Positions 1,498-27,112 of a stretch of DNA of 64,000 nt are shown here, piece after piece (position 1 is the first letter of the stretch; every line of letters starts with the position of its first letter). Source of the DNA: Candidatus Poseidoniales archaeon (lineage in GTDB: Archaea > Thermoplasmatota > Poseidoniia > Poseidoniales > Poseidoniaceae); contig DUDM01000043.1 of the NCBI GenBank assembly GCA_012959275.1, positions 2,910 through 66,909 of the forward strand. The letters are read 5' to 3'. Under the pieces are notes generated by a model. The model worked only from the letters and a program-made list of their open reading frames with translations. It did not search any database and was not told where the DNA came from. The position numbers were made by a program, and so were the translations under genes.

Positions 1498-1498
1498 C

Positions 1499-7581: not shown

Positions 7582-7693
7582 TTCCTATCAAAACCTCATC
7601 AATACTCACAAATCATCACCCAAAATCATCAGAAAAGAAGTTGCAAAGCCGGGAAAATGTAATTTATCTTTCCCAAATATTACTAAAATCCGC

Positions 7694-7708
7694 CTATACT
7701 ATAAATAC
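7694..7708 (+). promoter_or_regulatory. Putative archaeal TATA box/BRE for the 7758 surface-protein gene; GGAGG ribosome-binding site at 7746-7750
   Basis: ccgCCTATACTATAAATACgg lies about 50 nt upstream of the ATG at 7758, in an A/T-rich intergenic region. GGAGG sits 8 nt upstream of the start codon. Confidence 0.35.
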
Positions 7709-7757
7709 GGCAGGGTCTGTGCACGAAGGCACCGACTAATAGGTTGGAGGACTGAAT

Positions 7758-10700: not shown

Positions 10701-10931
10701 TCTGGAAACGTTGTAGCACTATCAGATAAAACTACCCAGATTCGCTATGGTGAACTCGACGATCCAGGCGCAGGCACTGATACTCTCGATGATGACAAGA
10801 GTGGAACAACAGGTGTTCCAACTTGGACATGGGGAGTTATCATCGGCATAGTCGTTGTAGCATTCGGAATTGGCGCATTCATCCTTAGCCGTGGTGGCGA
10901 GGGTGGAGAAGGCAAGGAATGGGATTATTGA
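7758..10931 (+). CDS. Large cell-surface protein (1057 aa): signal peptide, CARDB/Ig-like beta-sandwich domains, C-terminal TM anchor
   Basis: N-terminal signal peptide MKNIVPMTLILLMFASVFANTAW. CARDB-like segment (GDEVNFVVSVKNHGTNNVTEMNIEATIYLADG). Acidic, Thr/Asp-rich Ig-like repeats. C-terminal helix GVIIGIVVVAFGIGAFILS followed by RGGEGGEGKEWDY. Confidence 0.75.
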   Translation: MKNIVPMTLILLMFASVFANTAWIEMNENEMDGAADGRADDDVGILGILEPRATKTDTMTGELRNTVKAGDEVNFVVSVKNHGTNNVTEMNIEATIYLADGTVATDFAGNDLTWLDAVICDDAQSCPVQSLAAGAYLNGGSYSVRDASGAAIAWAAPLGAYTIAIELDVMSGDDDITNDEFTVDITVVNWYDIAIDLEWNPSVEQAEGAGPHDFTLTVSTDGSEEWSARSVVVDLMITGAALDTAVDGDGNDIKGTTTHETGTSQIVDVFFNESAPCDDPGPDNITGTADDGPCDARNGNGSRLVIDYQDSWTYSGTVTPDANANGGYQVEAALVNYTLYGAAAECQESGEVTIDNGPDGIEGTEDDIREIRTFMNICEVPVETDDNNSNNEDKITGFIGSYHNIGVSSLVIAQGYDSTGNGEATSMRGDQDEIDVGFSRLHAMVEHRGSSGTGPYDWEVTFVVTDVYDNNSVVATYTADECPAGVAPPYTHLDLGEGLTAQPAGYACSSHEFDSGTYKITATVAMVNPTNPDESSVDDSQTATVEARNHDPVISLSLTSEGDIVVGDIVSFDVSAFDAEDITGESLTYSWSRITTDSMSVDIGECSPSDDGAGGLTKGERTCAVPVDGSWATTLPVTVKVTDPHGGEASDKVDLKVWNRQVAEATAASDAVSISYDLTYMAVADFSITASDSAAIEGVLLGNSEEGADSVYVIDYAPVTNYGPGDVGSNALSITFPGSSTEDYSLWYQYPGQDWILLDGEAEQDGATNMKLEWVNLTSGTLNNGLLGIFNAAAGTGAVPANGVSNAIGVNMAGGLIAVQWTLENGGVDLLSGDKIQICSVTNANETCTSVDKDATQHLLTGTHGQVFDVTVSVINVNGANANVKTFTTTADAEVSPVPTTTFGSIANGSTAWTFTITTADAGNAVKLYVCWKDSTYEASQLTPDDLSCQPMDIADASVDITKPSVTSETVYHFSIFAEDSSGNVVALSDKTTQIRYGELDDPGAGTDTLDDDKSGTTGVPTWTWGVIIGIVVVAFGIGAFILSRGGEGGEGKEWDY

Positions 10932-10984: not shown

Positions 10985-11030
10985 GGCCAGCAGGGTCCTT
11001 GAGGGGGCCCTGCTGGCGACCTTTTTTTCT
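10985..11030 (+). terminator. Hairpin plus T7 tract terminator downstream of the 1057-aa surface-protein gene
   Basis: CCAGCAGGG-tccttgagg-gCCCTGCTGG (perfect 9-bp stem) followed by cgaccTTTTTTTc. Archaeal termination at oligo-T. Confidence 0.55.
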
Positions 11031-11490
11031 TAACATCAACAGCACAGCAGTGAGGATTACAATCCTTGGTTGTGTTAATTTCTTGAAATTTTATGTAGCC
11101 GCATTTTGTTGGCAAAAGAAAATTCCACTTGATTTTCAAATGATTATCAGCTCAGGCCATTGGATTATTATTAAAATTGGAAATAATATTCAATGTCAAG
11201 TAATTTCGTCCTCTGATAATACTCCTGTTCTGGCTTAATCCCCATGCCATTTTTCAAATCCTCTAGGCAATATCGCCAAATTAGTTGGAAAATGGCCTCC
11301 GGCCGCGCCTAGTGTATAAGGGTCATCCTACTTACAAACGGATTGTTCTGCCAAGTGCCGGAGAATTGTTACGGAAAAGGGCCTAATCCGCTCTAAGTCT
11401 ATCGCTTTTTCAAATAAGATGTACCCCAACACTCATAAGGAAAACAATTACTCCAGCAGCCTGCATACAGTCCGTAAGGGGTTTGATGAC

Positions 11491-14400
11491 ATGATAAATG
11501 GAAGCAAGATGAAGAAGACAACAATCTGGGGTGGGCTCTTTAGCGCCCTCCTCCTTTGTGCACTGATGGCAATTATGCCATTCAGCAGCATGGTGGATAA
11601 CCCGGTGAGCGAGACTGACTATACAGAGTCAGAAACGGCAGAACAGAAAGATGATCCTTTCCACCTGCCCGAAACGATTGAACAAGTAGAATGGGAGTAT
11701 GCCCTCGAAGATGAACTTCAGGGTATGCGCGATGTAAACCAAAAAGCCTTCGTACACGATGGTGAAATTTCGGTGCTAACAAGCAGCGAACCTTTGCACT
11801 ATCTTGAAGCAGGCGCTTGGGAAAATATCGATACCAACATAGTACCAACCGCATTCGGCTGGGAAGTCTCGAAGAACGTCTTCAAGACTACATTCTCGTC
11901 TGATGTTGGAGCTGGTGTAGCGGTTCAGATGGACCCTAATGTTGACCCAATTATCGTGGGAATTGCCCCACAGATTGTAACTCTCGATGAAGCAGGCGTG
12001 GCGCCGGAAATGCACCATGTTGCACCTTCACATGATGCAATCAGCGTTGGTGGAAATGTAATCCGCTACCCTGTTGCAGATGGTTATGATTTGGATTATG
12101 AGGTTTCATCCGTACAGATGAAGCAGAACCTTGTTATCCGTCAACAGCCAGTTCTCGATGAATCCGTTGCTTGGTTCGGTCTACGCGAAATTATTCGCTT
12201 ACCAGCAGGCTATGCTCTATTCATCGGTGATGAAGTGGTTGGAGAAGAAATCGTCTCTACTCAAGAACTGATGACAATCCGTAGTCTTGAGACTGGAGAG
12301 GTATTAGCAGAAATTCCAGTACCAGTGGTATTGGAACCTGGAGCCGAAGAACAGTACACCGCTACTTTCTTCGTCAGTTTCACTAATGGACAAATCGTCT
12401 TGACTACAGCAATTGATACTGATTGGTTAATGGATGAGGACCGAGTTTTCCCTCTTTCTCTTGACCCAACAATCAAGCGCACGTCATCTACAGGAGGATA
12501 CTGCTATCGCTACTACGCATATTGCTACAGTGGAAATAGCCGTTATTTCTACCGCTATAATGCACGCATCTACTATCTACCTTGGAGCAAGTACCAGTTT
12601 AGTAGCAGCAATGCTATGCCTAGTGGCTCAACAACCTCCTCAGTAAAGTGGAAGCAATATGTTGGCTACAGCAATACCTGGGGAAGTAGTTCCTATGATG
12701 CTGCAATAATGATGACTTGTGGGACTGCAAGTCGTTATTCTTACAGTATTGCCAGTGCATCCTGTTCCAGCACTTTGCTTGGAATGCCCTCAAGTTCCCA
12801 GTATGGGAATACGAAGGCCCGCAAGATGGTTAGTTCCATTTGGAACAGTCCAAGCGTTGGAACCTTTTCCACCGGAACCGGTTGGAAAACAGTTACTGTA
12901 AATAGTGCATATGAGGGTATCATTACAAATGCTGCCAATAATTCTGCATCAATCGGTATGACTCACATCAATACTAACAGTAATTATTACTACATGTATG
13001 CCCGCTATGGCGGTTCATACGACAGTTATTTGGAAATCACCTATACTGGTGGTTCCGATAGCACTCCACCATCTGCTGATTTCGTACCATACGAGGTAAC
13101 ATCGTACAAGGAGGGTGCCCGTACTTTCTTCACCACCCTCACCGATCCCGCTGGTATTGACACAACATCGTCTGGAAACCCACGCCTTTTCTACAAAATA
13201 GGCAGCGGTTCATGGACTGGCGTTAGTGCATCAAGTATTGGAACCTGTAGCAGCAGTGCTGCAAAGTGTAGATTCAAGGCAACTACCGCAAGCATCAGTG
13301 CTGGCGACTCAGTTGACTACTACTGGGCTTTCCAAGACTTGGCATATGCCGCAGGAATGGCACAGTCAAACAACTTCGCCACACTACCTGCTGGTGGAAG
13401 TGGTTCACCAAGTTCAAACACACCACCATCTACAGTCTTTAATTTCGATGTTGAAGACGTGGCTAACGCAGGAACAGCCAGGAAGATGACCATCCTAACT
13501 ACTGATGTACACGCAGGAAACCGCTATACACCATCAAAGTGGTTCGACAGACAGGTCACCTATTACGACGACAATGATGAATATGTATTCGAGTTCGACA
13601 CCTCAGATTGTGGAAGCGGCGCTAGTTCATGTTTCTATGCAACTAGCTATTATTTCTACAGTCAATGGCAGATGCAGTGGACTACTTCACCATCTTCAGG
13701 ATATAATGGACTTGGTGGTACCAAGTCTGGTGATGCAAAATTCCACAAGGATGACTTCGGATACCTATCCATAACCACAAACAATGGGCCTGGAATGAAT
13801 TTGATTTATGTTTATGACAGCACCTCAAATAAGTGGGCAATGGTCGGATTAGGAGATGCAAGCACTGGAATCGATGAGCCACTTTCTGGCGGAGACGTTG
13901 AGCCCTCTTACAGGTCATCCTATGGATATACTCAGGCATACAACATCAAGGTGCCAGGGGATATCACTGGAACATTCGGTAAGTTTGATTTCAATAATAC
14001 TTACTCCTCGAGTAAGGCAAACTGGATGTGCGTTGGGACCAATGGATGGATTTACTTCTTCCGTTCTACCAGCAGTAATCCAATATGCACCTCTGGATAT
14101 TACTACATCTACAGTACCTCCTACAGGTGGAGTGGATTCGCAATGGGTAGCGGCTATTACGGTCGCATGGCAAGTAGCGGAGAGGTTTCCTCCAAGGTTG
14201 GAAGGGTCGCACCAACTCCTGATATTTATGCCCCTGAAATTGTACATTCAGCACTGAAGGACAGTCACTCAAGAGACAGGACCTTCACCTTTGAAATTAC
14301 AGATGCTGGGGACCCCCCATCCGGACTAAACACCTCGTCCGCTGCTGGCGTTGGGCCAACATTGTACTACACAATTACAGATCCTGATGGCACAGTTAAT

Positions 14401-17400
14401 GCGCAACAATCAAAGGTACTATCACCAGATGATACCCGTGCAAACTGTATAGCATCTACATGTGTTTGGAGTGCTGAGTTGACCGACATAGAGCGTGGCG
14501 CATCCCTATCATACCATACCACAGCAAGAGACATATCGACTGTAAGCAGTGGAACAAATAGTGTAACTACTTCTGCTAACAGTTTCGAAGTTGGAGACCC
14601 AAATAAGGTCTTCATCATAGAGTGGCACGACATGGGCTACACCAATTCATACACCTGTACTTATCAGGTCAAATTGTATGATGTAACCAATGAAATAGAG
14701 TTCCACTATGATACTGGCTGCAGGGTCTATTACGACTATGCAACTGTCGGCTATCAAGACAGTACTCGTACAAAGGGTGCAACTCTACGCACAGAACAGG
14801 GCTACATGGCTGGTGGAAATCCACATACTAACAACTACCGTATCACAACAGATGCAAGTAGCCACAGTTCAGAAACTTTTACCGCAGGATTGACTGAGAT
14901 TACCAATTACCAGACTGCAATTGCCGGTAATAGCAACGGTATGCCATACGGATACTATTGTGCTAGCTCCTACTACTGGAACTCTTACAAAAATGGCTGT
15001 GATGCTAACCTCGATATGCCTGATGGTTTCACTTTCGATTACTTCGGAAACACCTTCAATGGTAGTTCTTCTACAAGTCGTGTTATGATTTCAAGACAAG
15101 GTTCGATGTCATTGAAGAGTACATCCTCAACTCAACCTGAGCGCGCAATGACTACTTGGTACACGACAATGCCGAAACTACCATACTCTAGCAACACGTA
15201 CTCAAGAGCAAACTTGATTGCACCATGGTGGGGATACTACACATCCTACTACTGCTATGATAACACTGCTCTCGATTGTGGCGTACGCTACCGCGTAATG
15301 CCATTCGAAGGCAAGGGAACAGATATTGATGCTGACATCACTCAAGATACATCTTGGGATCTTGTTGACAGCCCGATTCGTGTTAACCCAAGCGGTGATT
15401 ACTTGTCCGTTAACGCTAACTTGAATATCGAGCCAGGCGTAGTGGTACAGGTTGCACAGGGCAAGGGAATTTCCTTTGACGGTGCTTGTGATACATTCAC
15501 AGTATCTGGAAATGATACTGATGGTGACAATAATCACGTTCGCTTTGAAGGACAATACGGCCAGACTTGGACCGGTATTGCCTTTACTGACAGTTGTACA
15601 ACAACTGATGGAACAAATGACCGCCACCAATTCTCATATGTAGACTTCGTAAATACTAGTGACTATGCAATTGCAGCAGGTAGCCGCCACGGCAGCAGCC
15701 CAAGCAGCAATGCAAATGTTGGAAACTTTACTATGGACCATGTAACCTTCAGTAATGTGAAGGGTGCCGTTTCACACGGTAGTGGACAAGGTACAGTATT
15801 CGATATCAGTGACTTCGAAGTCAACGATGCGAGCGAGAGTTGTTTCTTGTTCCCTGATGATGCAATTGTAACACTCACTGATGGAGAAATGGATGGTTGC
15901 AACAGCGACAATTCATACCAACATGGAGCAGTTACTGATGCAACCAGTGGCGCAAGTAGTTCCAGTACCGGTACTGCTTCTGGTTCACTCACTGTAGAGA
16001 ACGTAGCAATCACTGATTCTGAAGCAAACTTAATCCGTTCATTTGCAGAAAACATTTACATTTCAAATGTTTCTGCTACATCTAGCGCAAATCAGGCAAG
16101 ATATGCATTGAGGCTACTAGGTAGTGGAGGAAGCGGTACACACAGTGCTGTGATAAACAACTTTACTGCAACATCATATGGTTATGGTGTGAAAATTGGA
16201 GCAGAGGATTCCTACAGTTTAACTAATGTAGACATCGGAACTTCTACTTTAACGCTTAGCCCAGGAACATCGACGACCAGTGGACCTGTTGGAGATGATG
16301 CAGTTATCGATTCATTGGAAGCAGGTGGAATGGGCATTCAACGCACATTGCCAACAATGTCAAATATCGACCTCGGAACTGGTGAGTTATCTATTACTGG
16401 AAACAGCCCATCCTCAACGCAAACAAGCATCTCTGATCTTGATGCAGGCGGCATAGGAGTTTCTGGTTGTGGCTACAACCTATACTTCGGCAACGTGGAT
16501 ATCTCGGATACAAGCGATACTGGATACTTGAGCGGCAGTTGTTCAAGCAGTGCTGCACAAAACACCATCCTCGTTGAAGGCGGAACAATGGCAAGCAGCC
16601 AATCTTCTAACAACATCATCTATGCGCGCAACTCCAAGATAACTCTTGGTGGAGTGGCCATTACAGGTCAGACTGCAATGGGCAACTACGTTGCTAAGGC
16701 AAGCACCAACGGGCGCATCACCTTAATCGATGTCACCTTTGGAGGCAATGATTGTGCTGATGCAGGCGGCGATGCTGGTAATTGCTGGCTTGAGGTTTCC
16801 TCAAGCAGCGGTAGTATTTGGCTAGGTGGAATTGGAACAGCAACCACATTCAAGGAGAAGAATTCAGTTCGAACCCTGAAGCCTGGAACTACTGTAACAT
16901 CATTCGTGATGGACAGTTCCGGTGCATCCTTGTTCATGATTGGAACTCAGGTCACCGACTCCAATGGTGAAGCAGATGTCTGGACAATCTCTGGAACCTG
17001 TGTTAGTGCAGGATGTAGCAGCCACGACCATGGTACCTATTTCGATGCATATGGCCCTGCTGGAATTCACAGCGCTGCCAACACATCATTTGGACTCGGA
17101 GATGACACCTTCCTAAGATTAACACAACCACCAATCACTCTATCGGATAGCGGAATGGATTGTGCTTACTTAGCAACAAACCAGTCGATGTCAGCCCTTG
17201 ATACTGCTGGCGATGGCATTTATATCCTTGATGATGGTTCAATCCTATTGGATGCCGACCTAACACTAGATGGTTGTACAATACAGATGACTGAGTCAAA
17301 ATTCATCATCCGTAGTGATGCAACCAATTCCCCAACTCTAACTATCAACAATGGTGGAGAGTTGGAGATGATTAAAGGATCAGGCGGCACATTTTCAGAA

Positions 17401-20400
17401 TTGAAGGCAGCATCTGCAGCATATCCACTACACATCACTCTCGGTGATGGTGGAACTCTTGACTTGCAGGGTGTTTACGCCCGCAACTTTGCTCAGGACA
17501 GTACTCAACAGGGTGCTCTCATTATTGGCCCTGGAGCAACAGTCAGTTTGACTGACGGCACAGTAGTTTACGGGGATGCGGCAAGTAGCAAAGATATGGC
17601 GACCATCAAGGTAAACGGAGGAACACTTTCTGTTCTCGATGCAAGCGTAATCAACAATGGCGGTACAGGAACTGGAATTTGGTTTGAACAAACATCAAGC
17701 ACACTTTCTGACATTACTGTTAGCAATGCAGAAGTTGGAATGAAGTCGCATAATGCAGCACCTATAGTCAATGGATTTACTCTTTCTAACAATGATGTTG
17801 GATTGGATTTCTATGGTGGCATGTCTCTTCCTACTATTTACCGCAGTACCTTATTGTCTGGTGAGAGCAACGGATGGACAACCTACGGCTTTGATTTAAG
17901 TTCGTTAATCGGTAAGCAATACGTACAACTTGGTTTTGAGTCAGTCTTCGCGGGCGGAAACGCCCACCCAAGATACAATTACTACACAAGCAAGTATTAC
18001 AACATCTACGACCGCATGCAGTATGAGGTCACTCTTGATAACGGCGCAGTATTCAATTATTCAATCGATCAAGCCGGAAAGGACAGTGCAGGATATTGGG
18101 ATGACCCAACATCCGATAGTTCAGACTATGGTGGCTGGGGTAATTACAGCTGTGGCCTATATGGCTATGTGCAGAACCCTGCTTACCGAGATTATGGTTA
18201 TTATTACTATTTCCATAATTACGGACCCTACACTCAAAGCAGTAATGGCTACTATGGCGCAAACGCCGAACCAGATCAGTTCGGATTCCGCTGGGAAGCA
18301 GGAGAAACAAGCACCGCTAGTTCCTTGTATTACCCATACCATTACTGGGGATACTACTGGCCATCTTCCCAATTCGGAAGCAACTACCAAGGTGGAATCT
18401 ATGAACCACCATCCGGTTTTGATGGCTTGTGGAGTAATTACAATGTCTGTATTGATTACGCATATACATACTACCAGAGCCCTGGAACCGGCGCTCGTTT
18501 GGCAATGCCAATTATCGACACACTGAATACAGGTACTAATTCCGGAACCTCTGGAAATATTGTAGGATTGAAATTATACATCGATGTTCTACACAAAGGT
18601 GCCGATTACTATCAGGACCGCTTGGACTTCGTTGGACGTTCATCGAATAATCACAATGATATGGGTGATTGGGCACGTGAATCTGGAAAGCCTACCTTCA
18701 CTCAAGGAACAATCACTGGTGCAGATATAGGAATTGAGATTGGTGGAAACTTTGCAGCAGCAGTTGTTGAAAACGTTGAGATCACCAGCCCAACCACAAC
18801 TGGTTTGAAGGTCTCTGGTTCAACAGCATCCTCATTCGACTACCTGAATGTTTCAGGTGGAAGTTATGGAGCGTACACAACATTGACCAGCCGAGGCAAA
18901 CTCCATTTGAAGAATATTGACTTCGATAATCAAGGCGTTGCTGGTGTTTCTTATCTCAAGGACATAGCCGGTAGTATCTCTGGAAGTGTTACCAACAGCG
19001 CAGGTGCCGCAATTAGCTACGGTGTATTGACTACTGCCGAACGCAATTTAGGAATCGACCTTTCAGGAAATGCAATCGGAGTATTGACTGCAGGAAGTGG
19101 AGATATTAATTTGGAGGGCAACACCTTTGCTAATGCAAAGGACTTCGTAATAAGCGGGTCATCGACGGTGACATTTATTGATGGAACGGTAGATGAAAGT
19201 ACGGTAGACGTGTCAGGCAATGGTGTCTTCAATAGAGCCCGAAGCCTTATCGCATCTATTACTGCTGATTCAAACGATGTTGTCGGCGCTGAGGTATACC
19301 TGATGGATAGCTCTGGGAAACCTACTGGTAACGGCGTTACTGATGCTAATGGTGATGCAGATGGAATCATATACTATACTGCAGTTGTTAACAAGGCAGG
19401 ATTAACTAACCCTGTCCTAGCTGGATACAAGTTAGCAACGGTTGCACAGATTGGCGCATACAGTTCATCAACTGCAGATTTCCGCTACTACTATGATAGC
19501 GTAACTCTCGATGCGAACGCTGCAACAATTGCGGACGTTGCATTAACCAATAAGTTCGATGCAAGGGTTTGCTATAGTTTCACTAGTACTTCATACCATA
19601 TGATTGCACCATGTGCCAGCTCTCTTTCAACAAATGGAAAGAGAACAATTGGTACCATGGTGGAGTATGGATATTATGGAGCAGTAGATTGGGATATGTC
19701 TGGAAAGACGATCATGGTCGACGCACCATACATGTACCTCAAAGGTAAGAGTGGAACCAATATCAACGATTGGAGCGATAGCACCATTATCAATACAGGT
19801 TCTTACGATTATTATGGTACGACTAATTATCGTTCCACATACCCATATAATGCGAAATTCCACGTAGAAAATAGTACTATGATTGCTCTTTCAGGAGTGG
19901 ATGAAAACACTGGAGTGCCATTTGGTTTCGACCTCGGATATTATGCATGGTCAGATGTTAATCCATACTACAAGAACAGCACCTTTATTGGCCTGCAGAC
20001 AATCGCAGCAGCAAATGAATATGGAAACGTAATGCCTGATAGATTCGTCGTTGAAGACAACATTATTGTCAGCAACACACCTGTTGTACCAGGCTCAACC
20101 AGTTTCTACTATGATGAGATGTGTGTTGTGAACGGAGCAGTAAATGGTGCATCAGTTGCAAGGAACCAATTCTCTGGTTGCGCAATTGGAGTTCGCAGCA
20201 TGAATACTATCTACTCCTACTACTATGGGAGAAGCACATGGGGTGCTGATAACATGACCATCGAGGGTAATACCTTCGATGGCGGTGTACTCGATGTATG
20301 GTTCGCTCTTGGCAGTTATTCAGATGACAACGTGGTCAAAGATAACATCCACACGGGTGCTACTCAGACCGAATACGCAATTTATGCACAGGATAGAAAC

Positions 20401-23400
20401 ACTGTACGTCCGGTCATTGAAGGAAACACCATCTATAACTCGAAAGAACCAATCTACATGCGCGGTGCACTAGGCTGGGACATTAGCGAGAACACCATCT
20501 ATGGTGATGGAAATTCCGGACACGCTGGAATTTACGTCAAGGATGGATACGGTTCTATTGATGGAAACATCCTTATCGATGCAGATGGTGGAATCCTCGT
20601 AGACGGTCTATCCTATGGCTACTCAGCCTCGGTGACCAACAACGAGATCTACCAATCCAATGGAAGAACTGCAGTTAGTGCAGTCGGAATTTGGGCAGAA
20701 GATTGTGGAACATCAACTCTCGAGACTGGTGGCAATGACATTACCATAATGGGCAATGCACTTGTCACTGATGGATGCGATATCGAAGATACAGGCAGCG
20801 TATTTACCGGAACCGGCGGAAGCGGCGGAATGGTCTACACTGTCAACATCATGGCAGGTTATTTCGCACCACAGAACTTGAGCATTAACGAAGGAGACAC
20901 TGTCAAGTGGCGCCTACAGAATTACTCGAGTGGCACAAACTACCAACACGGTACCATCTCAAATGATACCGATGGAAGTGGCTCACCACTCTGGGATTCT
21001 GGTGCAATGAACTTGGGAGGTACCTTCACCCACCTCTTCACCACTGCTGGAACCTACAACTACTCTTGTACAAACCACCCTACCACTATGTGGGGAACAA
21101 TCACTGTTGCCTCAGGTTCAACCTCATCTTTCACCAGCATCGGATTAGATGTTGTGGGAAGTAATGATGATGTTTCCTTGAATGGTACAGAAATCAGCGG
21201 CTTCACTACTGCTTACGAGCAATCTGGTGGAAGCCTCTTCCTGAATGGTGGAGCTGATTTGGAAGGTGGCGACTATGCAGTTGACATCGATGGAACTGAT
21301 GTTTCATCAGATGGCGGAATGTTGTCAGCAACCTCTGCTACTGGAGTAGGTCTATACTTCACCGGTGGTGGTGCTCTTGCACTAGTCGATTTATCGACTG
21401 ATGCACCTCAGGGTGTCTACATCGATGGAAGCACAGATGGATTGTTCGACTGGAATGGTGGAACTGTCTACAGTGGTACTGGTCTCTATGCGGTCGACAA
21501 GGCTGAAGGAGATATTCAGAACATGACTTGGACAGACGCAAGCACCCAAATCTATGCGGGTAGCGACACCAAGATTACCAGTGTTGGAAACACACTCGAC
21601 GAGAACAAATTGGTAGTTGTCACCGGTGCAGAAGTTCATGAAGCAAACTTGCTTGACTTGAACGTTAACCACTTAGGTGCAGCATCAAGCAACGTTGGAC
21701 TGTTGATTACTTCCGAGAGCGGCAACAAGGCAGCATACGTTAGCCCTGACATGCGCAATACCGGAGTATTGGCTGTTGGAACATCTGGTGACGCTGGAGA
21801 CTTATCCGACTGGTTCGGTAATGTTGACAACCCATCTGATGACCTGATGCCTGGTGTTATGTCAAGCGATGGCGCTGGTGAAGACTTCATGGCTACATGG
21901 GATGAGACAAACTTGTTCCTCGCTCTAACTGGAGTCGACATGGATAATGGAGATCTAATGATCTTCCTAGACACTGCTGATGATGGAAGCACAGACGGCT
22001 GGGAGTGGGACGGTACAACACCATCCCTCGGCTACAGCGCAAACTATGCTTTCTGGGCAGAGGACGGTAGCGATTCGCCAAATGATGGAGATACAACTTA
22101 CAGTTACTCCTTGAAGAAGTGGCGCGGTGACAAGTGGGATGACAGCCTAGGCTGCACCAACATGGCCGCTCACGTCGGATGGACGGATAACACCAACACA
22201 GAGTTGAAGATTCCGTGGGATTGTATCGGAAGCCCAAGCAACCGCTGGGTCCGCATGTCAGTAGTTGTTCTTGAGGAGACTGGTGGCGTAGTTGCCAGCA
22301 ACCACCCAAGCACCGGCTACCTCAGCATGAACCTCGGCAAGGCTAACCTTGGCGATGGTACTCTATCTGATGAGCGCTTAAACTACCGCAGTTATATCGG
22401 TAGCAACTCGCCAAGCCCATCTGAGGATTACAACATCTTAGCAAAGGTAGCTGCAGATTGCGCAGAAGACTGGGGCAACATCGACGGACTAGATATGTCA
22501 GAAAACCGCGACGAGGACATCGACATTCTACGTGCATGTCCAATCATCACTGGTATTGAAGACGTTTCATACGATGAAGACAGTGGAGCCCAAACCATCT
22601 CCTTGACAGACAAGGCAGATGATGTACAGGATTCGGCAGCTTCTCTATCATGGACTCTTGAAAGCGATGTTGATGCTGATGGCGACTTGTTAACTGTAGT
22701 TCTAGTCGCTCACGACTTGACTATCACGCCTAAGGACAACGAGTTCGGCACCTACCTGATTTTACTAACTGTAGAAGACAGCAATGGTCTAAGCGCTTCC
22801 AAGTCGATGTTGATTACCGTCAACAACGTCAACGATGCACCAACAATCTGCAACACAGGACGCACCGATTGTATGCCAGTGTTCAGCGATGATGGATTCG
22901 ATAACCTAAACGTTCTCGATGAAGGATTCGGTAGCCACAGCAAGCCACTCGGTTTGATTGCAAACAGCGCTGGTTCATACATCACCGATCAGGCCAACGA
23001 GCAAACACAGACTCTATCTAACTCAGAGAATGTACCTCAGGCTTACATCTTCGGTGCAAGCGTACCAGCTGAGTGTGGCGCATTCAGCGTTGCAGTTGCC
23101 AACAATGAGTTGAGCATCACAGAAGTAGCAGATAACGAACTTGGTGGAGTTTGTACAGTCACTCTAACATTGAGCGACGGTGCAAGCGTCAACGATGCAG
23201 CAACAAGTGTTGATGTTGACTTCACAGTCAACCCAGTCAACGATGTGCCAGTTATCCCAGAGTACGATGTCAATACCGATGCACACCTCACCACCGGTGA
23301 GGGGGTTGCAGTTGCAACACCATGGTCAGTATCAGTGACAGAGGACACAGGCTGCGTAAATGCAGTTTGTGCTAACACCGATGCTCTAACCTTCGACCTA

Positions 23401-25008
23401 TCTGGCTTGAAGGCTGATAACGACCACAATGATGCAGACTTAACTTGGACTTGGGTAGAGACATCAAGTTGTGATGTTGACAATTACTTCGAGGATATTT
23501 CCTTTAACGGAAACGATTTGGAGTTCACCCTGATTCAGGATGCAGCAACCAACGTGCCATCTGAGGAAATTGATTTCTTGGATGACGGTGGAATACACCA
23601 GCAAGTGCCACTCAGTGGAGAATACTGTCCGATTAAGGTTGTACTGAGCGATTCGCCAAGTGCACCTTCGTACATCCCTAACTATGGTCTAACTACTGCA
23701 ACATACAACCAAGAGACCACCTCCACAATCTTCAGCATACGTGTTGAGAATACCCGTGAGATGGTAGCAGACTACTTGTTAGATGTAGACACTGGCTTTG
23801 ACTTTAACAGTGTCAACTTCATCATGCCAGGAACTAACATCCCAATTGATGTTGACATCCAGCACGAAGGAGATGAGGGACCATACAAGTACGACCAACT
23901 ACTCAAGGTTCAGTTCTTGAGCAACGGTGCTGGCGGATTAGCCACCAGAGACACACAGTTCATCGTACCACCAGCATGGGGACAATCTGTCAGCCTTGGT
24001 AGCAAGGTACTGATTGATGAGTCAACCACCCGTGTCGGAGTGCGTGTTGACGTCTTGACTTGTAAGGCAGCTTCCTGTCCAAGCCCAAGTGCAGCAACAC
24101 CAACTGACTTCATCACCAACAGCCCAGCAGCACACCGTGCAGCAGACACACCTAACTCCGCATGGAGCGAGCCAGGAGCAATCGGATACGATGCTACTAC
24201 TGGTGTCTACTCACAACGCAGACCTGCACTAGAAGATGGCAACTGGTCAAACAATGCAATGTTCTCATCATTGATTGCATCTGACCCATCAGGTATTCTA
24301 GACAGCGGACAAGATCTACCAGTAATGGTCGACACAATGGCACCATCTGCGGTACCATCTTTCGCACCAGGTCTAGTGGCAATCAGCGCAGCAGGATTAT
24401 TCGTTGCTGGTCTAATGTTGGCAAGTCAACGCCGCATCGATGATGATGAAGAGTTTGTACAATCAGCACTTGTTGATGACGAGCAGGCAGTCAGCCCAGT
24501 TATTGCTACCATCTTGATGGTCGCAATAACAGTGGTTTTGTCTGGTGTAGTATACGTATGGGCCAGTGATCTAGCTGACCAGCCAAGCAAGTCGGTTCCA
24601 CGAATCGCCTTCAAGGTTGAGAAGACAGACCCAGGTACCAACGGATACTGGTCCATCATCGTGACCAGCGCAAAGGAGCCAATAGCAACACAGGCGACTG
24701 TAGTAATGGTCGAGTGGGTCAACGATACCGGAAGTCAAATCGAGTCATTCAAGTTGTCTGATTCTGAGGGCACATACGGTTTCGCCCCGGTCAATTCGGA
24801 AAGCTTCATCACATTCTCTGACAGTATCAAGTGTGAGGCTGCGGATGAGTGCACCTCAACATATGGAGATGGAGATGCAATCCACATCAGGATGAGCGAC
24901 CCGAGTGGTTTCCTGTTAAAGGACAACGGAGTACGTGTTACACTGAAGTACGTCCCACAGGGAGTTGGAACTGCAAGCGTTCTGAAGACCTTCAACCTTG
25001 AAATTTGA
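11491..25008 (+). CDS. Giant cell-surface protein (about 4500 aa; uninterrupted ORF 11419..25008): signal peptide, parallel beta-helix repeats, cadherin-like repeats, embedded cupredoxin domain, C-terminal TM anchor plus pilin-like module
   Basis: Single 13.6-kb ORF with no stop. Likely start at MINGSKMKK (11491) or MKK (11509), which places the signal peptide MKKTTIWGGLFSALLLCALMAIMPFSS at the N-terminus. Ser/Thr/Gly/Tyr/Asn-rich with many N-x-S/T sequons. Beta-helix-like repeats (e.g. NNGGTGTGIWFEQTSSTLSDITVSNAEVGMKS). Cadherin-like repeats with NVNDAPTI / NPVNDVPVI. Cupredoxin domain at 20830-21110. C-terminal hydrophobic anchor ...GLFVAGLMLASQRR followed by a DUF1628/archaeal-pilin-like segment. 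Confidence 0.8.
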   Translation: MINGSKMKKTTIWGGLFSALLLCALMAIMPFSSMVDNPVSETDYTESETAEQKDDPFHLPETIEQVEWEYALEDELQGMRDVNQKAFVHDGEISVLTSSEPLHYLEAGAWENIDTNIVPTAFGWEVSKNVFKTTFSSDVGAGVAVQMDPNVDPIIVGIAPQIVTLDEAGVAPEMHHVAPSHDAISVGGNVIRYPVADGYDLDYEVSSVQMKQNLVIRQQPVLDESVAWFGLREIIRLPAGYALFIGDEVVGEEIVSTQELMTIRSLETGEVLAEIPVPVVLEPGAEEQYTATFFVSFTNGQIVLTTAIDTDWLMDEDRVFPLSLDPTIKRTSSTGGYCYRYYAYCYSGNSRYFYRYNARIYYLPWSKYQFSSSNAMPSGSTTSSVKWKQYVGYSNTWGSSSYDAAIMMTCGTASRYSYSIASASCSSTLLGMPSSSQYGNTKARKMVSSIWNSPSVGTFSTGTGWKTVTVNSAYEGIITNAANNSASIGMTHINTNSNYYYMYARYGGSYDSYLEITYTGGSDSTPPSADFVPYEVTSYKEGARTFFTTLTDPAGIDTTSSGNPRLFYKIGSGSWTGVSASSIGTCSSSAAKCRFKATTASISAGDSVDYYWAFQDLAYAAGMAQSNNFATLPAGGSGSPSSNTPPSTVFNFDVEDVANAGTARKMTILTTDVHAGNRYTPSKWFDRQVTYYDDNDEYVFEFDTSDCGSGASSCFYATSYYFYSQWQMQWTTSPSSGYNGLGGTKSGDAKFHKDDFGYLSITTNNGPGMNLIYVYDSTSNKWAMVGLGDASTGIDEPLSGGDVEPSYRSSYGYTQAYNIKVPGDITGTFGKFDFNNTYSSSKANWMCVGTNGWIYFFRSTSSNPICTSGYYYIYSTSYRWSGFAMGSGYYGRMASSGEVSSKVGRVAPTPDIYAPEIVHSALKDSHSRDRTFTFEITDAGDPPSGLNTSSAAGVGPTLYYTITDPDGTVNAQQSKVLSPDDTRANCIASTCVWSAELTDIERGASLSYHTTARDISTVSSGTNSVTTSANSFEVGDPNKVFIIEWHDMGYTNSYTCTYQVKLYDVTNEIEFHYDTGCRVYYDYATVGYQDSTRTKGATLRTEQGYMAGGNPHTNNYRITTDASSHSSETFTAGLTEITNYQTAIAGNSNGMPYGYYCASSYYWNSYKNGCDANLDMPDGFTFDYFGNTFNGSSSTSRVMISRQGSMSLKSTSSTQPERAMTTWYTTMPKLPYSSNTYSRANLIAPWWGYYTSYYCYDNTALDCGVRYRVMPFEGKGTDIDADITQDTSWDLVDSPIRVNPSGDYLSVNANLNIEPGVVVQVAQGKGISFDGACDTFTVSGNDTDGDNNHVRFEGQYGQTWTGIAFTDSCTTTDGTNDRHQFSYVDFVNTSDYAIAAGSRHGSSPSSNANVGNFTMDHVTFSNVKGAVSHGSGQGTVFDISDFEVNDASESCFLFPDDAIVTLTDGEMDGCNSDNSYQHGAVTDATSGASSSSTGTASGSLTVENVAITDSEANLIRSFAENIYISNVSATSSANQARYALRLLGSGGSGTHSAVINNFTATSYGYGVKIGAEDSYSLTNVDIGTSTLTLSPGTSTTSGPVGDDAVIDSLEAGGMGIQRTLPTMSNIDLGTGELSITGNSPSSTQTSISDLDAGGIGVSGCGYNLYFGNVDISDTSDTGYLSGSCSSSAAQNTILVEGGTMASSQSSNNIIYARNSKITLGGVAITGQTAMGNYVAKASTNGRITLIDVTFGGNDCADAGGDAGNCWLEVSSSSGSIWLGGIGTATTFKEKNSVRTLKPGTTVTSFVMDSSGASLFMIGTQVTDSNGEADVWTISGTCVSAGCSSHDHGTYFDAYGPAGIHSAANTSFGLGDDTFLRLTQPPITLSDSGMDCAYLATNQSMSALDTAGDGIYILDDGSILLDADLTLDGCTIQMTESKFIIRSDATNSPTLTINNGGELEMIKGSGGTFSELKAASAAYPLHITLGDGGTLDLQGVYARNFAQDSTQQGALIIGPGATVSLTDGTVVYGDAASSKDMATIKVNGGTLSVLDASVINNGGTGTGIWFEQTSSTLSDITVSNAEVGMKSHNAAPIVNGFTLSNNDVGLDFYGGMSLPTIYRSTLLSGESNGWTTYGFDLSSLIGKQYVQLGFESVFAGGNAHPRYNYYTSKYYNIYDRMQYEVTLDNGAVFNYSIDQAGKDSAGYWDDPTSDSSDYGGWGNYSCGLYGYVQNPAYRDYGYYYYFHNYGPYTQSSNGYYGANAEPDQFGFRWEAGETSTASSLYYPYHYWGYYWPSSQFGSNYQGGIYEPPSGFDGLWSNYNVCIDYAYTYYQSPGTGARLAMPIIDTLNTGTNSGTSGNIVGLKLYIDVLHKGADYYQDRLDFVGRSSNNHNDMGDWARESGKPTFTQGTITGADIGIEIGGNFAAAVVENVEITSPTTTGLKVSGSTASSFDYLNVSGGSYGAYTTLTSRGKLHLKNIDFDNQGVAGVSYLKDIAGSISGSVTNSAGAAISYGVLTTAERNLGIDLSGNAIGVLTAGSGDINLEGNTFANAKDFVISGSSTVTFIDGTVDESTVDVSGNGVFNRARSLIASITADSNDVVGAEVYLMDSSGKPTGNGVTDANGDADGIIYYTAVVNKAGLTNPVLAGYKLATVAQIGAYSSSTADFRYYYDSVTLDANAATIADVALTNKFDARVCYSFTSTSYHMIAPCASSLSTNGKRTIGTMVEYGYYGAVDWDMSGKTIMVDAPYMYLKGKSGTNINDWSDSTIINTGSYDYYGTTNYRSTYPYNAKFHVENSTMIALSGVDENTGVPFGFDLGYYAWSDVNPYYKNSTFIGLQTIAAANEYGNVMPDRFVVEDNIIVSNTPVVPGSTSFYYDEMCVVNGAVNGASVARNQFSGCAIGVRSMNTIYSYYYGRSTWGADNMTIEGNTFDGGVLDVWFALGSYSDDNVVKDNIHTGATQTEYAIYAQDRNTVRPVIEGNTIYNSKEPIYMRGALGWDISENTIYGDGNSGHAGIYVKDGYGSIDGNILIDADGGILVDGLSYGYSASVTNNEIYQSNGRTAVSAVGIWAEDCGTSTLETGGNDITIMGNALVTDGCDIEDTGSVFTGTGGSGGMVYTVNIMAGYFAPQNLSINEGDTVKWRLQNYSSGTNYQHGTISNDTDGSGSPLWDSGAMNLGGTFTHLFTTAGTYNYSCTNHPTTMWGTITVASGSTSSFTSIGLDVVGSNDDVSLNGTEISGFTTAYEQSGGSLFLNGGADLEGGDYAVDIDGTDVSSDGGMLSATSATGVGLYFTGGGALALVDLSTDAPQGVYIDGSTDGLFDWNGGTVYSGTGLYAVDKAEGDIQNMTWTDASTQIYAGSDTKITSVGNTLDENKLVVVTGAEVHEANLLDLNVNHLGAASSNVGLLITSESGNKAAYVSPDMRNTGVLAVGTSGDAGDLSDWFGNVDNPSDDLMPGVMSSDGAGEDFMATWDETNLFLALTGVDMDNGDLMIFLDTADDGSTDGWEWDGTTPSLGYSANYAFWAEDGSDSPNDGDTTYSYSLKKWRGDKWDDSLGCTNMAAHVGWTDNTNTELKIPWDCIGSPSNRWVRMSVVVLEETGGVVASNHPSTGYLSMNLGKANLGDGTLSDERLNYRSYIGSNSPSPSEDYNILAKVAADCAEDWGNIDGLDMSENRDEDIDILRACPIITGIEDVSYDEDSGAQTISLTDKADDVQDSAASLSWTLESDVDADGDLLTVVLVAHDLTITPKDNEFGTYLILLTVEDSNGLSASKSMLITVNNVNDAPTICNTGRTDCMPVFSDDGFDNLNVLDEGFGSHSKPLGLIANSAGSYITDQANEQTQTLSNSENVPQAYIFGASVPAECGAFSVAVANNELSITEVADNELGGVCTVTLTLSDGASVNDAATSVDVDFTVNPVNDVPVIPEYDVNTDAHLTTGEGVAVATPWSVSVTEDTGCVNAVCANTDALTFDLSGLKADNDHNDADLTWTWVETSSCDVDNYFEDISFNGNDLEFTLIQDAATNVPSEEIDFLDDGGIHQQVPLSGEYCPIKVVLSDSPSAPSYIPNYGLTTATYNQETTSTIFSIRVENTREMVADYLLDVDTGFDFNSVNFIMPGTNIPIDVDIQHEGDEGPYKYDQLLKVQFLSNGAGGLATRDTQFIVPPAWGQSVSLGSKVLIDESTTRVGVRVDVLTCKAASCPSPSAATPTDFITNSPAAHRAADTPNSAWSEPGAIGYDATTGVYSQRRPALEDGNWSNNAMFSSLIASDPSGILDSGQDLPVMVDTMAPSAVPSFAPGLVAISAAGLFVAGLMLASQRRIDDDEEFVQSALVDDEQAVSPVIATILMVAITVVLSGVVYVWASDLADQPSKSVPRIAFKVEKTDPGTNGYWSIIVTSAKEPIATQATVVMVEWVNDTGSQIESFKLSDSEGTYGFAPVNSESFITFSDSIKCEAADECTSTYGDGDAIHIRMSDPSGFLLKDNGVRVTLKYVPQGVGTASVLKTFNLEI
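20830..21110 (+). other. Cupredoxin (type-1 blue copper, plastocyanin/halocyanin-like) domain embedded in the giant surface protein
   Basis: MVYTVNIMAGYFAPQNLSINEGDTVKWRLQNYSSGTNYQHGTISND...GTYNYSCTNHPTTMWGTITVA. Upstream His ligand (YQHG) and C-x2-H-x3-M (YSCTNHPTTM) on a beta-sandwich-like sequence, the T1 copper ligand set. In frame with the giant ORF. Confidence 0.6.
24487..25008 (+). other. Archaeal type IV pilin / DUF1628 (archaeal flagellin N-terminal-like) module forming the last 173 aa of the giant ORF
   Basis: AVSPVIATILMVAITVVLSGVVYVWASD... matches the hallmark hydrophobic N-terminus of archaeal class-III-signal-peptide pilins (consensus roughly [KR]G-VSPVIATVLLIAITVVLAAVLY), followed by a beta-rich domain of about 140 aa. 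Here it is preceded by a TM anchor (24337-24435) and a 17-aa acidic linker instead of a short basic leader. Confidence 0.5.
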
Positions 25009-25027: not shown

Positions 25028-25095
25028 AGGCTGGCACTCGTGCCAGTCTTTACGGCGGGAGTAATCCCTTCGCAGTCGCAAGGCTGCGAAGGGAA
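25028..25095 (+). terminator. Two stem-loops downstream of the giant gene (possible terminator or processing structures)
   Basis: CTGGCAC-tc-GTGCCAG (7-bp stem) followed by tcttta. Then CCTTCGCAG-tcgcaagg-CTGCGAAGG (9-bp stem). Located between the stop at 25008 and the next gene. Confidence 0.35.
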
Positions 25096-25128: not shown

Positions 25129-25821
25129 GTGTTAGCGATGATACGTTGTGTCGCATTCGATTGCGACGGGGTCTTAGCTGATGCAATTAGTTCCTGGAGA
25201 ACTTTGCACGATCATTTCGGCACCGATACAGGAGAGATGCTGCGACGCTTCATCGCTAAGGAAATTAGCGATGAGGAATTCATGCGCTATGATATCCAAT
25301 TGTGGAAATCCGTTCAAGCGGAGATTCACAGGGATGATTTGTTTCGAGCATATGCAGGCATCAAACTGATTACCGGTGCCCGTGAAGTGGTTGCAAGATT
25401 GCAAGAGGATGGAATACTGGTTGTTATTATCAGTGCAGGAATCGATATATTTGTTGGAGCAATCGCTGCAATGTTGAAAGTCGATGATTGGATTGCCAAT
25501 GGCTTCGAATTCGATGATGATGGATTCCTTTTAGATGAAGGTATCGTGAGAGTTTCTGCCCACAAAAAGGCAAGTGCTGTTGCACGAGTAATAGAGATGC
25601 ATGACCTTAGTGCTGAGGAAGTAGCCTGTATAGGTGATAGCGAGGTCGATTTGTCGATGCATGTGGAGGGTTCAACCTTCATTGGATTCAATCCAACGAG
25701 GAAGAGTTCCTTTGATGCGTTTGCAGAAGCGGGAGTTCCAATTGTTGAGAGTCGGGATTTGCGAGATATTTGGGTTCACCTGTTTGGTCAACCGTTTGAG
25801 GCGAAGGCATCAAGCCACTGA
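25129..25821 (+). CDS. HAD-superfamily hydrolase, phosphoserine-phosphatase-like (subfamily IB)
   Basis: Motif I FDCDGVL (DxDG), motif IV IGDSEVD near the C-terminus, alpha-helical cap region between them. 230 aa; an alternative start at 25138 (MIRC...) is possible. Confidence 0.7.
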   Translation: MLAMIRCVAFDCDGVLADAISSWRTLHDHFGTDTGEMLRRFIAKEISDEEFMRYDIQLWKSVQAEIHRDDLFRAYAGIKLITGAREVVARLQEDGILVVIISAGIDIFVGAIAAMLKVDDWIANGFEFDDDGFLLDEGIVRVSAHKKASAVARVIEMHDLSAEEVACIGDSEVDLSMHVEGSTFIGFNPTRKSSFDAFAEAGVPIVESRDLRDIWVHLFGQPFEAKASSH

Positions 25822-25837: not shown

Positions 25838-27112
25838 ATGGCGCCTGCCAAGTCATCGTTGAGTATCATACTCACGTTGCTAGTGTTAAGCGCTGGATGT
25901 TTGTCTGATTCGCTTGATGATAGCGGTGTAACTTCTACAGAGGAAGTCTCCGGAAACTTGGTAATTTGGTCAACCTACGAGTCTGATTCAAAGGAAGAAG
26001 AGGCATTTTTGGATTCAGTTTCAGCCTGGCAAAAAATACATCCTGAAGTGGAAGTAGAAGTCACATCAAAACCATTCTATCAGGCAGTTCAGGCTTACAA
26101 GATTGCAGCCCTTGGTGGAGAGGCACCTGATTTGATGCGCTTTTCTAATGACCAATTAGGTAGCATTGCACCAGTTAGAGATAGAGGCAACCCACTTTTG
26201 GAGGACTTACGCCCTTGGTTAACCCCTGCTCAGCGTTCAGTATGGGATCCTATTGCCCTAGAATCGATGCGTTATGATGACGCACTTATGGCAATCCCAG
26301 TCAGTCAAGATTGTGTGAGTCTATTCTTCAATCGCGCCCTCTTTGATGAAGCCGGAATCAATTATCCCGATGAAAACTGGACAACTGCTGACTTTTTATC
26401 TGCAGCTCAAGACATGACCTTTGGCGAGCAAGTTGGCTTGTCTATTCCTACCAAGGACCCTTTTCGTTGGTTCTCGCTCAATAGCGGCTATGGGGGGAGT
26501 TTGTTCACTGCCAATGGTGAGGCGAACCTCGATGGAAATGGCTCGGCAGATGCTCTGCGTTTCTGGTTAGACCTAGAATTAAAACACGAAATCGTTCCGA
26601 CTGGAACAAACGTTGAGACCATGAAACAGCAATTCCTCAGTGGCAAGGCTGCGATGATTATTGATGGGCCTTGGCATTGGCCAACCTATACCGCCGCTCG
26701 CCTAGATGTTGGACAAGCCCTGCTTCCTATCGTTGAGGAGACTGGACTTCGAATGTCACCAATGGTCGGGTACAAGGGGTGGGCAGTCTCAAAACAAAGT
26801 CCAAACAAAGAATCTGCAATCTCTCTGGCGCTATATCTCTCATCTTCTGAGGTTGTCAAATACGCAGCCCTTGAAACTATGACTATGCCTGTACTCAGCA
26901 ATCTTTACGATGACCCCGATATCCATTCTGATGTCGCACTAAGGGGTTTCATCGCTCAAGCAAGACTAGGTTTCCCTGCACCTACAAGCAAAGGGATGTC
27001 AGCAATTTACGATATTCTTCCAACCGCAATTGAAAATTCTTATGTCGGTGAGATGAGTACCCAAGCAGCATTAACTGCGGCCAATCAAGAATTAAAGGAG
27101 GAAATGCGATGA
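25838..27112 (+). CDS. malE: ABC transporter substrate-binding protein, family 1 (maltose/maltodextrin-binding, MalE-like), lipobox-type signal peptide
   Basis: Signal peptide with LLVLSAGC lipobox-like Cys. NLVIWSTYESD...FLDSVSAWQKIHPEVEVEVT...APDLMRFSNDQLG parallels MalE (KLVIWINGDKGYNGL...GPDIIFWAHDRFG). First gene of a sugar-uptake/amylase operon. Confidence 0.75.
   Translation: MAPAKSSLSIILTLLVLSAGCLSDSLDDSGVTSTEEVSGNLVIWSTYESDSKEEEAFLDSVSAWQKIHPEVEVEVTSKPFYQAVQAYKIAALGGEAPDLMRFSNDQLGSIAPVRDRGNPLLEDLRPWLTPAQRSVWDPIALESMRYDDALMAIPVSQDCVSLFFNRALFDEAGINYPDENWTTADFLSAAQDMTFGEQVGLSIPTKDPFRWFSLNSGYGGSLFTANGEANLDGNGSADALRFWLDLELKHEIVPTGTNVETMKQQFLSGKAAMIIDGPWHWPTYTAARLDVGQALLPIVEETGLRMSPMVGYKGWAVSKQSPNKESAISLALYLSSSEVVKYAALETMTMPVLSNLYDDPDIHSDVALRGFIAQARLGFPAPTSKGMSAIYDILPTAIENSYVGEMSTQAALTAANQELKEEMR

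Follow-up and report, generated by a model that had tools for sequence, protein, structure and literature searches.

A giant cell-surface protein of the Poseidoniales that ends in a type IV pilin

Archaeal type IV adhesion pilins, such as Haloferax volcanii PilA1-6 and those of Protein Data Bank (PDB) entries 9myg and 8rey, carry a helix of the form ..A↓VSPVI(A/G).IL.VAITV.. (arrow, class III signal cleavage site) followed by a beta-sandwich head. The same pairing is found at the C-terminus of a giant protein encoded in a 64,000-nucleotide stretch (the window) of Candidatus Poseidoniales archaeon (NCBI: GCA_012959275.1, contig DUDM01000043.1, positions 2,910 to 66,909). As in PilA1-6, one helix is common to several pilin paralogues. 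Unlike the adhesion pilins, with their short basic N-terminal leaders, the giant protein has its class III signal internally, after an ectodomain, a transmembrane (TM) segment, and an acidic loop, and its residue at position −2 is not Lys or Arg. A first-pass annotation of the window, made from the letters alone, had described a mosaic giant adhesin; the signal peptide, the cupredoxin, the VPSFAP/TM/Arg-Arg/acidic-loop region, and the pilin are all absent from it.

In modular pilins, among them Streptococcus sanguinis PilB and PilC, a pilin module is likewise joined covalently to large adhesive modules. Those extra modules lie C-terminal to the pilin, survive leader cleavage, and ride on the pilus. 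An 829-residue pilin carrying the same helix as the giant protein (P0183) is also of the modular kind. Here, unlike in modular pilins, the giant part precedes the cleavage site and would be parted from the pilin by cleavage. Non-filament surface proteins that use pilin-type signals and a prepilin peptidase are known from 2007 work cited in PMC12448462; these carry the signal at the N-terminus, with the functional domain placed after the helix, unlike the arrangement described here.

In being very large, acidic, and extracellular, with beta-helix and immunoglobulin (Ig)-like folds, the protein resembles Ag43, Fap2, FHA, the RTX adhesins (SiiE), and archaeal halomucin. Unlike these, it is non-repetitive, lacks autotransporter, type I secretion system, and two-partner secretion signals, and combines an archaeal Sec signal with a TM/pilin C-terminus. 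Its VPSFAP motif fits the V-P-x-x-x-P of archaeosortase signals (PGF-CTERM, VPXXXP-CTERM) and, as in those, is followed by a hydrophobic helix and Arg-Arg. We rejected an archaeosortase sorting signal: no NCBIfam model matched even at E ≤ 10 on the isolated segment, and 190 residues follow. The Pilin_N pilin, the beta-helix, the Ig-like modules, and the cupredoxin are all of known kinds, and what appears to be new is their architecture. A giant ectodomain placed ahead of an internal class III signal and pilin was not found in the literature on Poseidoniales pilins, giant pilin fusions, and internal class III signals, as covered by the archaeal type IV pili census (PMC4858521), the 2026 archaeal type IV filament survey, Poseidoniales phylogenomics (PMC6461757), and full-text searches.

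A conserved giant gene with a pilin at its C-terminus

The 13.6-kb uninterrupted open reading frame (ORF) reported by the first-pass annotation is borne out (Table 1); residues are numbered from position 11419 (1-4529). Its earlier start, 11491, is indeed an in-frame ATG, the second, but the probable true start is the third, 11509, which gives 4499 residues and a signal-peptide-like beginning (MKKTTIWGG...; MKKTTIWGGLFSALLLCALMAIMPF). The identical protein NCBI HIF16550.1 (4499 residues) also starts there and is titled "type IV pilin [Candidatus Poseidoniales archaeon]"; the database names of the protein are "type IV pilin" or "flagellin-like protein". At 90% identity or more it forms a cluster of 15 members, whose full-length copies (4467-4529 residues) lie on independently assembled 17-135 kb contigs (NCBI, JGI, Logan), near-identical in at least 8 contigs.

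The internal repeats assumed earlier do not exist. Tandem Repeats Finder returned only trifles of 15-24 nt across the gene, and self-BLASTP of the protein gave nothing at E<1e-3, so the worry about collapse across repeats has no substrate. Assembly collapse or chimerism, a concern of the first-pass annotation, is very unlikely, and we reject it on the 15-member cluster, the absence of repeats, and the open frames in orthologues. To call the gene one of the largest in archaea was an overstatement, since the same family reaches 5559 residues, whereas its description as a giant, exported, acidic cell-surface protein is supported (528 Asp and Glu against 212 Lys and Arg). The gene encodes a real giant cell-surface protein, conserved across the order Poseidoniales (Marine Group II, MGII).

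The full-length protein and ten overlapping segments of it were scanned with Pfam and NCBIfam. Matches above threshold comprised the pilin (Pilin_N/TIGR02537, residues 4354-4425) and a Copper-bind domain (3148-3230); below threshold were Beta_helix (2053-2141, E 0.005) and tandem-95, Big_9, Cadherin_5, and PKD (3719-3812). Pilin_N (PF07790) scored 38.4-41.6 bits against a cut-off of 25.2, and TIGR02537 scored 42.3-45.3 bits against 20. PDB sequence matches of the pilin part were the archaeal pilins 8fj5, 8gi2, and 9myg. An AlphaFold2 model of residues 4092-4529, built from 107 sequences, had a predicted local distance difference test score (pLDDT) of 80.9. It resolves into a beta-sandwich stalk, then the TM helix and loop, and finally a pilin helix bearing a beta-sandwich head. 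Foldseek matched it with probability 1.0 to the Cuniculiplasma filament 8rey and to Natrinema PilA1 (9myg), at template-modelling scores (TM-scores, target) of 0.40-0.42. The C-terminus is a complete archaeal type IV pilin.

Hydropathy gave three hydrophobic segments: the signal peptide, residues 4318-4336, and residues 4358-4382. These, together with the Arg-Arg after the first TM helix (TM1) and the acidic loop, suggest a topology with the ectodomain outside, TM1 running out-to-in, the loop in the cytoplasm, the pilin helix running in-to-out, and the head outside. Across orthologues the loop has 15-18 residues, 57% of them Asp or Glu. The pilin junction is internal, at residue 4357 of 4529, and so departs from the class III definition of a short N-terminal leader. 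This C-terminal TM, acidic loop, and pilin module is the most distinctive feature of the giant protein.

The arrangement is widely conserved. The C-terminal 272 residues have 1918 homologues, and those with an organism name belong to Poseidoniales, Thalassarchaeaceae, Thermoplasmatota, or (an older label) Euryarchaeota; all show the order VPSFAP(S/G), TM, Arg-Arg, acidic loop, (D/E)(D/E)x-AVSPVIATILMVAITVVLSGVIYVWA. A scan of species-representative genomes gave at least 529 loci of the C-terminal module. Upstream of the pilin helix, no stop codon interrupts the frame before the fetched DNA ends in 76 of 80 loci, up to ~3600 codons, and two complete orthologous ORFs have 2480 and 3546 residues. 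In a 50% identity library, the top matches are proteins of 2785-5559 residues with the pilin at the very C-terminal end, and the weaker ones are canonical pilins of 80-260 residues with the helix at about residues 7-50. The label "mosaic" does not hold, as orthologues align collinearly to the window protein across more than 3700 residues, with 39-62% identity. By tblastn, a HAD hydrolase gene lies 3' of the pilin module in 87/87 loci.

Within this module, conservation is concentrated in the helix. Across 107 sequences (set A1), 24 of the 26 residues of A4357-A4382 never vary and the remaining two reach at least 90% conservation, whereas identity over the rest of the module is about 45% in that set and TM1 varies. 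Third codon positions in the helix vary freely among 83 distinct orthologue DNA sequences, which points to purifying selection on the protein, residue by residue; on this ground we reject gene conversion as the source of the invariance. Such selection is expected of a filament-core helix handled by pilin machinery, not of a mere anchor. The never-interrupted frame, in turn, means that the fused product itself is under selection; judged from sequence, the giant-pilin fusion is selected, not accidental. Two synonymous sites stand out from their free neighbors: the Ser4359 codon (window 24493-24495) is AGC in 83/83 sequences, and that of Gly4376 (24544-24546) is GGT in 82/83.

Proposed processing of the internal junction

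Stand-alone Poseidoniales pilins of ~175 residues form a large family (2264 matches) with the same helix, AVSPVIATILMVAITVVLAGVLYVWAS, and a different head. Their leaders, 8-14 residues long, are short and net-acidic (MNNENRNEE, MKNEMKNDE). The junction ..EE-A↓VSPVIATIL.. is common to the giant protein and these canonical pilins. Ala4357 at −1 is invariant in 107 sequences and recurs in the stand-alone pilins, and the acidic residues at −3/−4 are conserved. Our case for a genuine prepilin-peptidase site at the junction rests chiefly on the −1 Ala and acidic −3 that it shares with these N-terminal signals. The stand-alone genes occupy a conserved locus; at two such loci (L089, 10001-10528; L090, 10001-10534), the gene lies between an M24 peptidase gene and glycosyltransferase/nucleotide-sugar genes; no pilus assembly genes occur near the stand-alone loci.

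A giant-type pilin head also occurs as an apparent stand-alone gene (P0105, P0115, P0117; L006 1-270, L088 1-730). We rejected natural fission as its origin, these cases being probable assembly chimeras instead. The candidates are SPAdes contigs of 1.4-1.6x coverage that join the 5' region of the stand-alone locus, downstream of the M24 peptidase, to a giant-type head, and the join falls inside helix-coding DNA, in ~40 identical bases common to both genes. L006 is also joined to the HAD gene and begins with a Nextera adapter (translated ...DVYKRQ). Such probable chimeras matter for counting "pilins" in metagenomes.

We give an even chance to the reading that the gene product is a giant adhesin, exported by Sec, synthesized as a single polypeptide together with a prepilin, and cut between Ala4357 and Val4358. 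The Sec signal peptide would export a ~4,250-residue ectodomain with the beta-helix, Tyr-rich segments, cupredoxin (in this lineage), Ig-like modules, and stalk. The chain would cross the membrane at TM1, form the 17-residue acidic cytoplasmic loop, and re-enter as the pilin helix, with the head outside. TM and loop would act as an oversized class III signal peptide, and an archaeal prepilin peptidase would cleave just behind the invariant Ala4357, on the cytoplasmic side of the membrane. The cut would leave the giant protein as a type-I membrane-anchored adhesin and free a mature pilin, which may co-assemble with the abundant stand-alone ~175-residue pilins, given their near-identical helix, into an adhesion pilus. 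To our knowledge, it is established filament biology that unprocessed pilins cannot enter type IV filaments; an uncut pilin bearing loop, TM, and ectodomain would not be extractable into a filament, which leaves either cleavage or a role of the whole protein as an anchor.

The second of these would be an uncleaved hairpin anchor, in which the pilin helix serves as a second TM segment, the whole protein is kept, and the head acts as a docking or oligomerization domain; it might, for example, cap or terminate a pilus base or contact envelope partners. The predicted topology is compatible with this arrangement, the frame is never interrupted, position −2 lacks a basic residue, and peptidase or assembly genes are missing from the surroundings. 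The AlphaFold2 model (predicted TM-score 0.70), with pLDDT of only about 53-80 for the two hydrophobic helices, is neutral, neither supporting nor excluding a hairpin. A plain anchor, however, needs no near-invariant helix while TM1 drifts freely, the invariant −1 Ala and the junction of short-leader pilins point to recognition by pilin machinery, and the exclusion of unprocessed pilins from filaments tells against an uncut pilin. We consider the uncleaved anchor unlikely, though a real contender.

For the cleaved form, a fuller account would be a polyprotein, to which we give somewhat less than an even chance. The ~4,300-residue adhesin with TM and loop would serve as the prepilin leader, the junction would be the first internal class III signal, and production of adhesin and (minor) pilin would be coupled. 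This pilin would seed or join the adhesion pili of the most abundant planktonic archaea in the ocean, and a second cut, made possible by the conserved extracellular VPSFAP motif, might transfer the adhesin to the pilus.

Several points weigh against cleavage and its consequences. Both cleavage and filament incorporation are what we infer from sequence features. Position −2, where archaeal class III sites typically have Lys or Arg, is Gln and variable in the family. The 64-kb window encodes no type IV pilus ATPase, platform protein, or A24 peptidase, a motif scan found no type IV machinery in 1.5 Mb of related loci, and neither additional pilin genes nor type IV machinery occur within ±10 kb of the 87 loci. 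Only the archaellum operon has been reported, in most MGII genera (PMC6461757); such an operon would imply that a class III peptidase exists. A 26-residue leader has already been called unusually long (PMC12448462), and one as large as this is without precedent. No reason is apparent for synthesizing adhesin and pilin 1:1, and the adhesive function proposed for the ectodomain comes from fold analogies.

A third possibility is that one frame gives two products, the fusion being accompanied or replaced by a free prepilin made from an internal start in the acidic loop. In this loop, purine-rich GAG/GAA codons resemble a ribosome-binding site, and Met occurs in 64/75 distinct linkers (~30% expected from the Met content of the protein). 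These Met residues cluster at −6, −8, and −1 relative to the invariant Ala, their position differing between linker variants, and gene callers repeatedly begin ORFs there. The linker sequences are phylogenetically related, however, which keeps the enrichment from being a clean statistic. In a Red Sea metatranscriptome, a DUF1628 pilin gene was among the strongest MGII transcription start sites, which pilin gene being left unspecified (PMC5069720); we count this expression in favor of the prepilin reading, and the signal would also fit an internal start. Conversely, the linker in the window has no in-frame ATG, GTG, or TTG, so internal initiation is not a general or sole mechanism, and it leaves the lack of a stop codon between the two parts unexplained. 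As an account of the locus we think it improbable, while many orthologues may also make free prepilin in this way.

The ectodomain and its sequons

The parallel beta-helix proposed earlier is corroborated at the level of fold. An AlphaFold2 model of residues 1290-2189 (12 homologues, pLDDT 75) is all-beta, in two helical segments with a low-confidence insert between them, and all 50 of the 50 listed Foldseek PDB matches are beta-helix proteins. They include PL6 alginate lyases (best E 4e-5), a GH55 glucanase, Ag43, phage tailspikes, Fap2, and PfbA. Profile scores are sub-threshold: Beta_helix reached 16.8 bits against a cut-off of 25.9, and Pect-lyase_RHGA_epim 15.8 against 27. A lyase activity, suggested by the first-pass annotation, does not follow from these matches, because identity to the PL6 structures is ~10% and TM-scores are 0.1-0.2, too low to map the catalytic Ca2+ site and the Brønsted base and acid reliably; the Pfam and NCBIfam scan also gave no match to a CAZyme family hidden Markov model (HMM). 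The Tyr/Cys-rich stretch near the N-terminus was found as described and proved to be the first of several Tyr-rich blocks. Defined as 60-residue blocks with at least 11% Tyr, these span residues 361-420, 481-540, 841-900, 1081-1200, 1261-1320, 2161-2400, 2641-2700, and 2761-2820, the richest having 23-25% Tyr.

The Copper-bind match (PF00127) scored 25.8-28.8 bits against a cut-off of 21.2. Aligned with the Nitrosopumilus blue-copper protein 5fc9 (E 1.4e-9), the domain has the ligand-type His, Cys, and His in register and a Met at C+7, and we assign it as a type-1 cupredoxin with a predicted copper site. It is present in only 9/52 orthologues, which keep C-x2-H-x2-4-M. It lies directly after a beta-helix segment, as a lineage-variable insert where orthologue alignments break (residues ~3065-3240).

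The cadherin-like repeats of the first-pass annotation stood in part. Modules ending in V-N-D-(A/V)-P do lie where it had placed them, with NVNDAPTI at position 22825 (residue 3803) and NPVNDVPVI at 23230 (residue 3938), but every family HMM stayed below its cut-off. Tandem-95 (NF012211) gave E 8e-9 and 35.3 bits against a cut-off of 90, Big_9 20.6 bits against 23.6, and Cadherin_5 13.9 against 26.5; PKD was also below threshold. The PDB matches of the region were a PKD domain (E 0.005) and a protocadherin (E 0.69). The region is best described, from its sequence features, as two Ig-like modules with VND(A/V)P ends. By analogy of fold, the whole ectodomain (~4,250 residues) is most plausibly an adhesin or a polysaccharide binder.

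The bias toward Ser, Thr, Gly, Tyr, and Asn noted earlier is confirmed (S 11.2%, G 10.4%, T 9.5%, N 6.1%, Y 5.6%; D is 7.9%), but the heavy N-glycosylation predicted from "dozens" of sequons is not. In the mature protein we count 25 N-x(not P)-S/T sequons (27 if counted from 11419), about half of the 54.6±6.5 expected from shuffling its own composition (z about −4.5; 0/500 shuffles as low); shuffling inside 50-residue blocks gives 54.0±6.3, again with no shuffle as low. The reverse motif S/T-x-N occurs 60 times, as expected. Depletion extends to all 52 of 52 orthologous giant ORFs of at least 2000 residues, with observed/expected ratios of 0.06-0.80 (median 0.64), against a median of 1.01 for the reverse motif. 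The family extreme is an orthologue (L043; giant ORF portion, 3787 residues) with 3 sequons where ~50 are expected. In other exported proteins of the window, sequons are enriched 1.5-2.9-fold, and those of 913 and 771 residues (Table 1) are better candidates for heavily N-glycosylated envelope proteins. The pattern suggests that sequons have been selected against in the giant protein family.

The ectodomain also bears on a fourth possibility, that the protein is primarily a structural, S-layer-like envelope component or a surface polysaccharide lyase/hydrolase, with adhesion secondary. The gene occupies one syntenic position in every species-representative locus examined, unlike typical accessory adhesins; its best fold matches are PL6 alginate lyases and a GH55 glucanase, and here it abuts an alpha-glucan utilization cluster. 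Set against this are the low identity and TM-scores, the lack of a CAZyme match, and the occurrence of the cluster beside the gene in only 23/87 loci. Archaeal S-layer glycoproteins are typically not sequon-depleted, the opposite of what we observe. We regard such a role as very improbable.

Neighboring genes and implications

The features of the gene and its surroundings are collected in Table 1. Upstream, window 2104-10931 (+) encodes an ABC ATPase, then a 1568-residue MacB/FtsX-type permease, then an orphan 1057-residue protein with no Pfam match. The permease has recognized domains in its last ~400 residues only and a very large extra N-terminal/extracytoplasmic part. No counterparts of the MacB-like ABC system or the 1057-residue protein were found upstream in the two loci that reach the start of the giant gene.

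Downstream, the alpha-glucan genes comprise a sugar-binding protein, two permeases, a MalK-like ATPase, a GH13 amylase with CBM48, a phosphorylase-like protein, GH77, and GH57 (1490 residues, with a glucodextranase C-terminal module). Only 23/87 loci have this cluster beside HAD; in the others the genes that come next are those for the DNA polymerase small subunit (DP1) and CinA. We therefore take the cluster to be an island rather than a partner of the giant gene, and a functional link between the two is unsupported. An ARAGORN "tmRNA" at window 43470-43893 (+) overlaps a tRNA-Val (43820-43893) and is almost certainly a false positive in an archaeal genome.

Table 1. Features of the giant gene and its neighborhood, in window positions
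Feature	Position	Strand	Basis or remark
Terminator-like hairpin with T-run	10986..11017	+	Separates the giant gene from the preceding 1057-residue gene
Giant ORF	11419..25008	+	4529 codons + stop, uninterrupted
Sec-type signal peptide or anchor, MKKTTIWGGLFSALLLCALMAIMPFSS	11509..11589	+	Hydrophobic segment, residues 34-52; putative cleavage
Tyr/Cys-rich stretch, GGYCYRYYAYCYSGNSRYFYRYNARIYY	12493..12576	+	First Tyr-rich block
Right-handed parallel beta-helix, residues 1290-2189	15286..17985	+	AlphaFold2 and Foldseek
Second, larger Tyr-rich region, residues 2161-2400	17899..18618	+	Up to 25% Tyr
Putative further beta-helix-like repeats (GNTI..N, ..GI.V..)	19966..20808	+	Sequence pattern
Type-1 (blue copper) cupredoxin, predicted His...Cys-x2-His-x3-Met ligand set	20830..21117	+	Pfam, PDB 5fc9
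Two Ig-like (tandem-95/cadherin- or PKD-like) modules	22573..23256	+	End in NVNDAPTI, NPVNDVPVI
Membrane-proximal beta-sandwich "stalk", residues 4119-4215	23773..24063	+	AlphaFold2 pLDDT >90; fn3/MG-like by Foldseek; conserved in A1
VPSFAP motif, TM1, and basic stop QRR, residues 4312-4339	24352..24435	+	Hydropathy, orthologue alignment
Acidic cytoplasmic loop, 17 residues, IDDDEEFVQSALVDDEQ	24436..24486	+	Between TM1 and pilin helix
Class III signal-peptide-like junction (Ala4357 −1, Val4358 +1) and pilin alpha-helix, AVSPVIATILMVAITVVLSGVVYVWAS	24487..24576	+	Pilin_N, TIGR02537
Pilin globular beta-sandwich head, residues 4387-4529	24577..25005	+	AlphaFold2 pLDDT about 90
Two hairpins	25029..25093	+	Between stop codon and HAD gene; read by eye
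HAD-family hydrolase gene	25129..25821	+	Pfam; invariable downstream neighbor
Alpha-glucan utilization island	25838-41452		Between HAD and DNA polymerase small subunit
GH13 amylase			Sequons 15 observed, 7.4 expected
GH57 protein			Sequons 17 observed, 11.3 expected
771-residue protein	44016-46328	+	Sequons 17 observed, 6.0 expected; no family match
913-residue protein	54471-57209	+	Sequons 25 observed, 8.6 expected; weak Big_9/Cadherin_4 matches

Among archaea of the surface ocean the still uncultured Poseidoniales dominate, and their attachment to particles and algae has so far been discussed through the archaellum operon and thrombospondin-like genes (PMC6461757). The gene described here stands at one syntenic position in all 87 related loci examined. 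It ties the type IV pilin system physically to a huge beta-helix ectodomain, and the order of the two parts is the reverse of that in every described modular pilin. The avoidance of sequons amid sequon-rich exported proteins suggests that the ectodomain surface must stay glycan-free, which offers a testable clue. If the junction is processed, the range of class III signal peptidase substrates would be extended, and the giant protein would provide a concrete, testable model for MGII adhesion.

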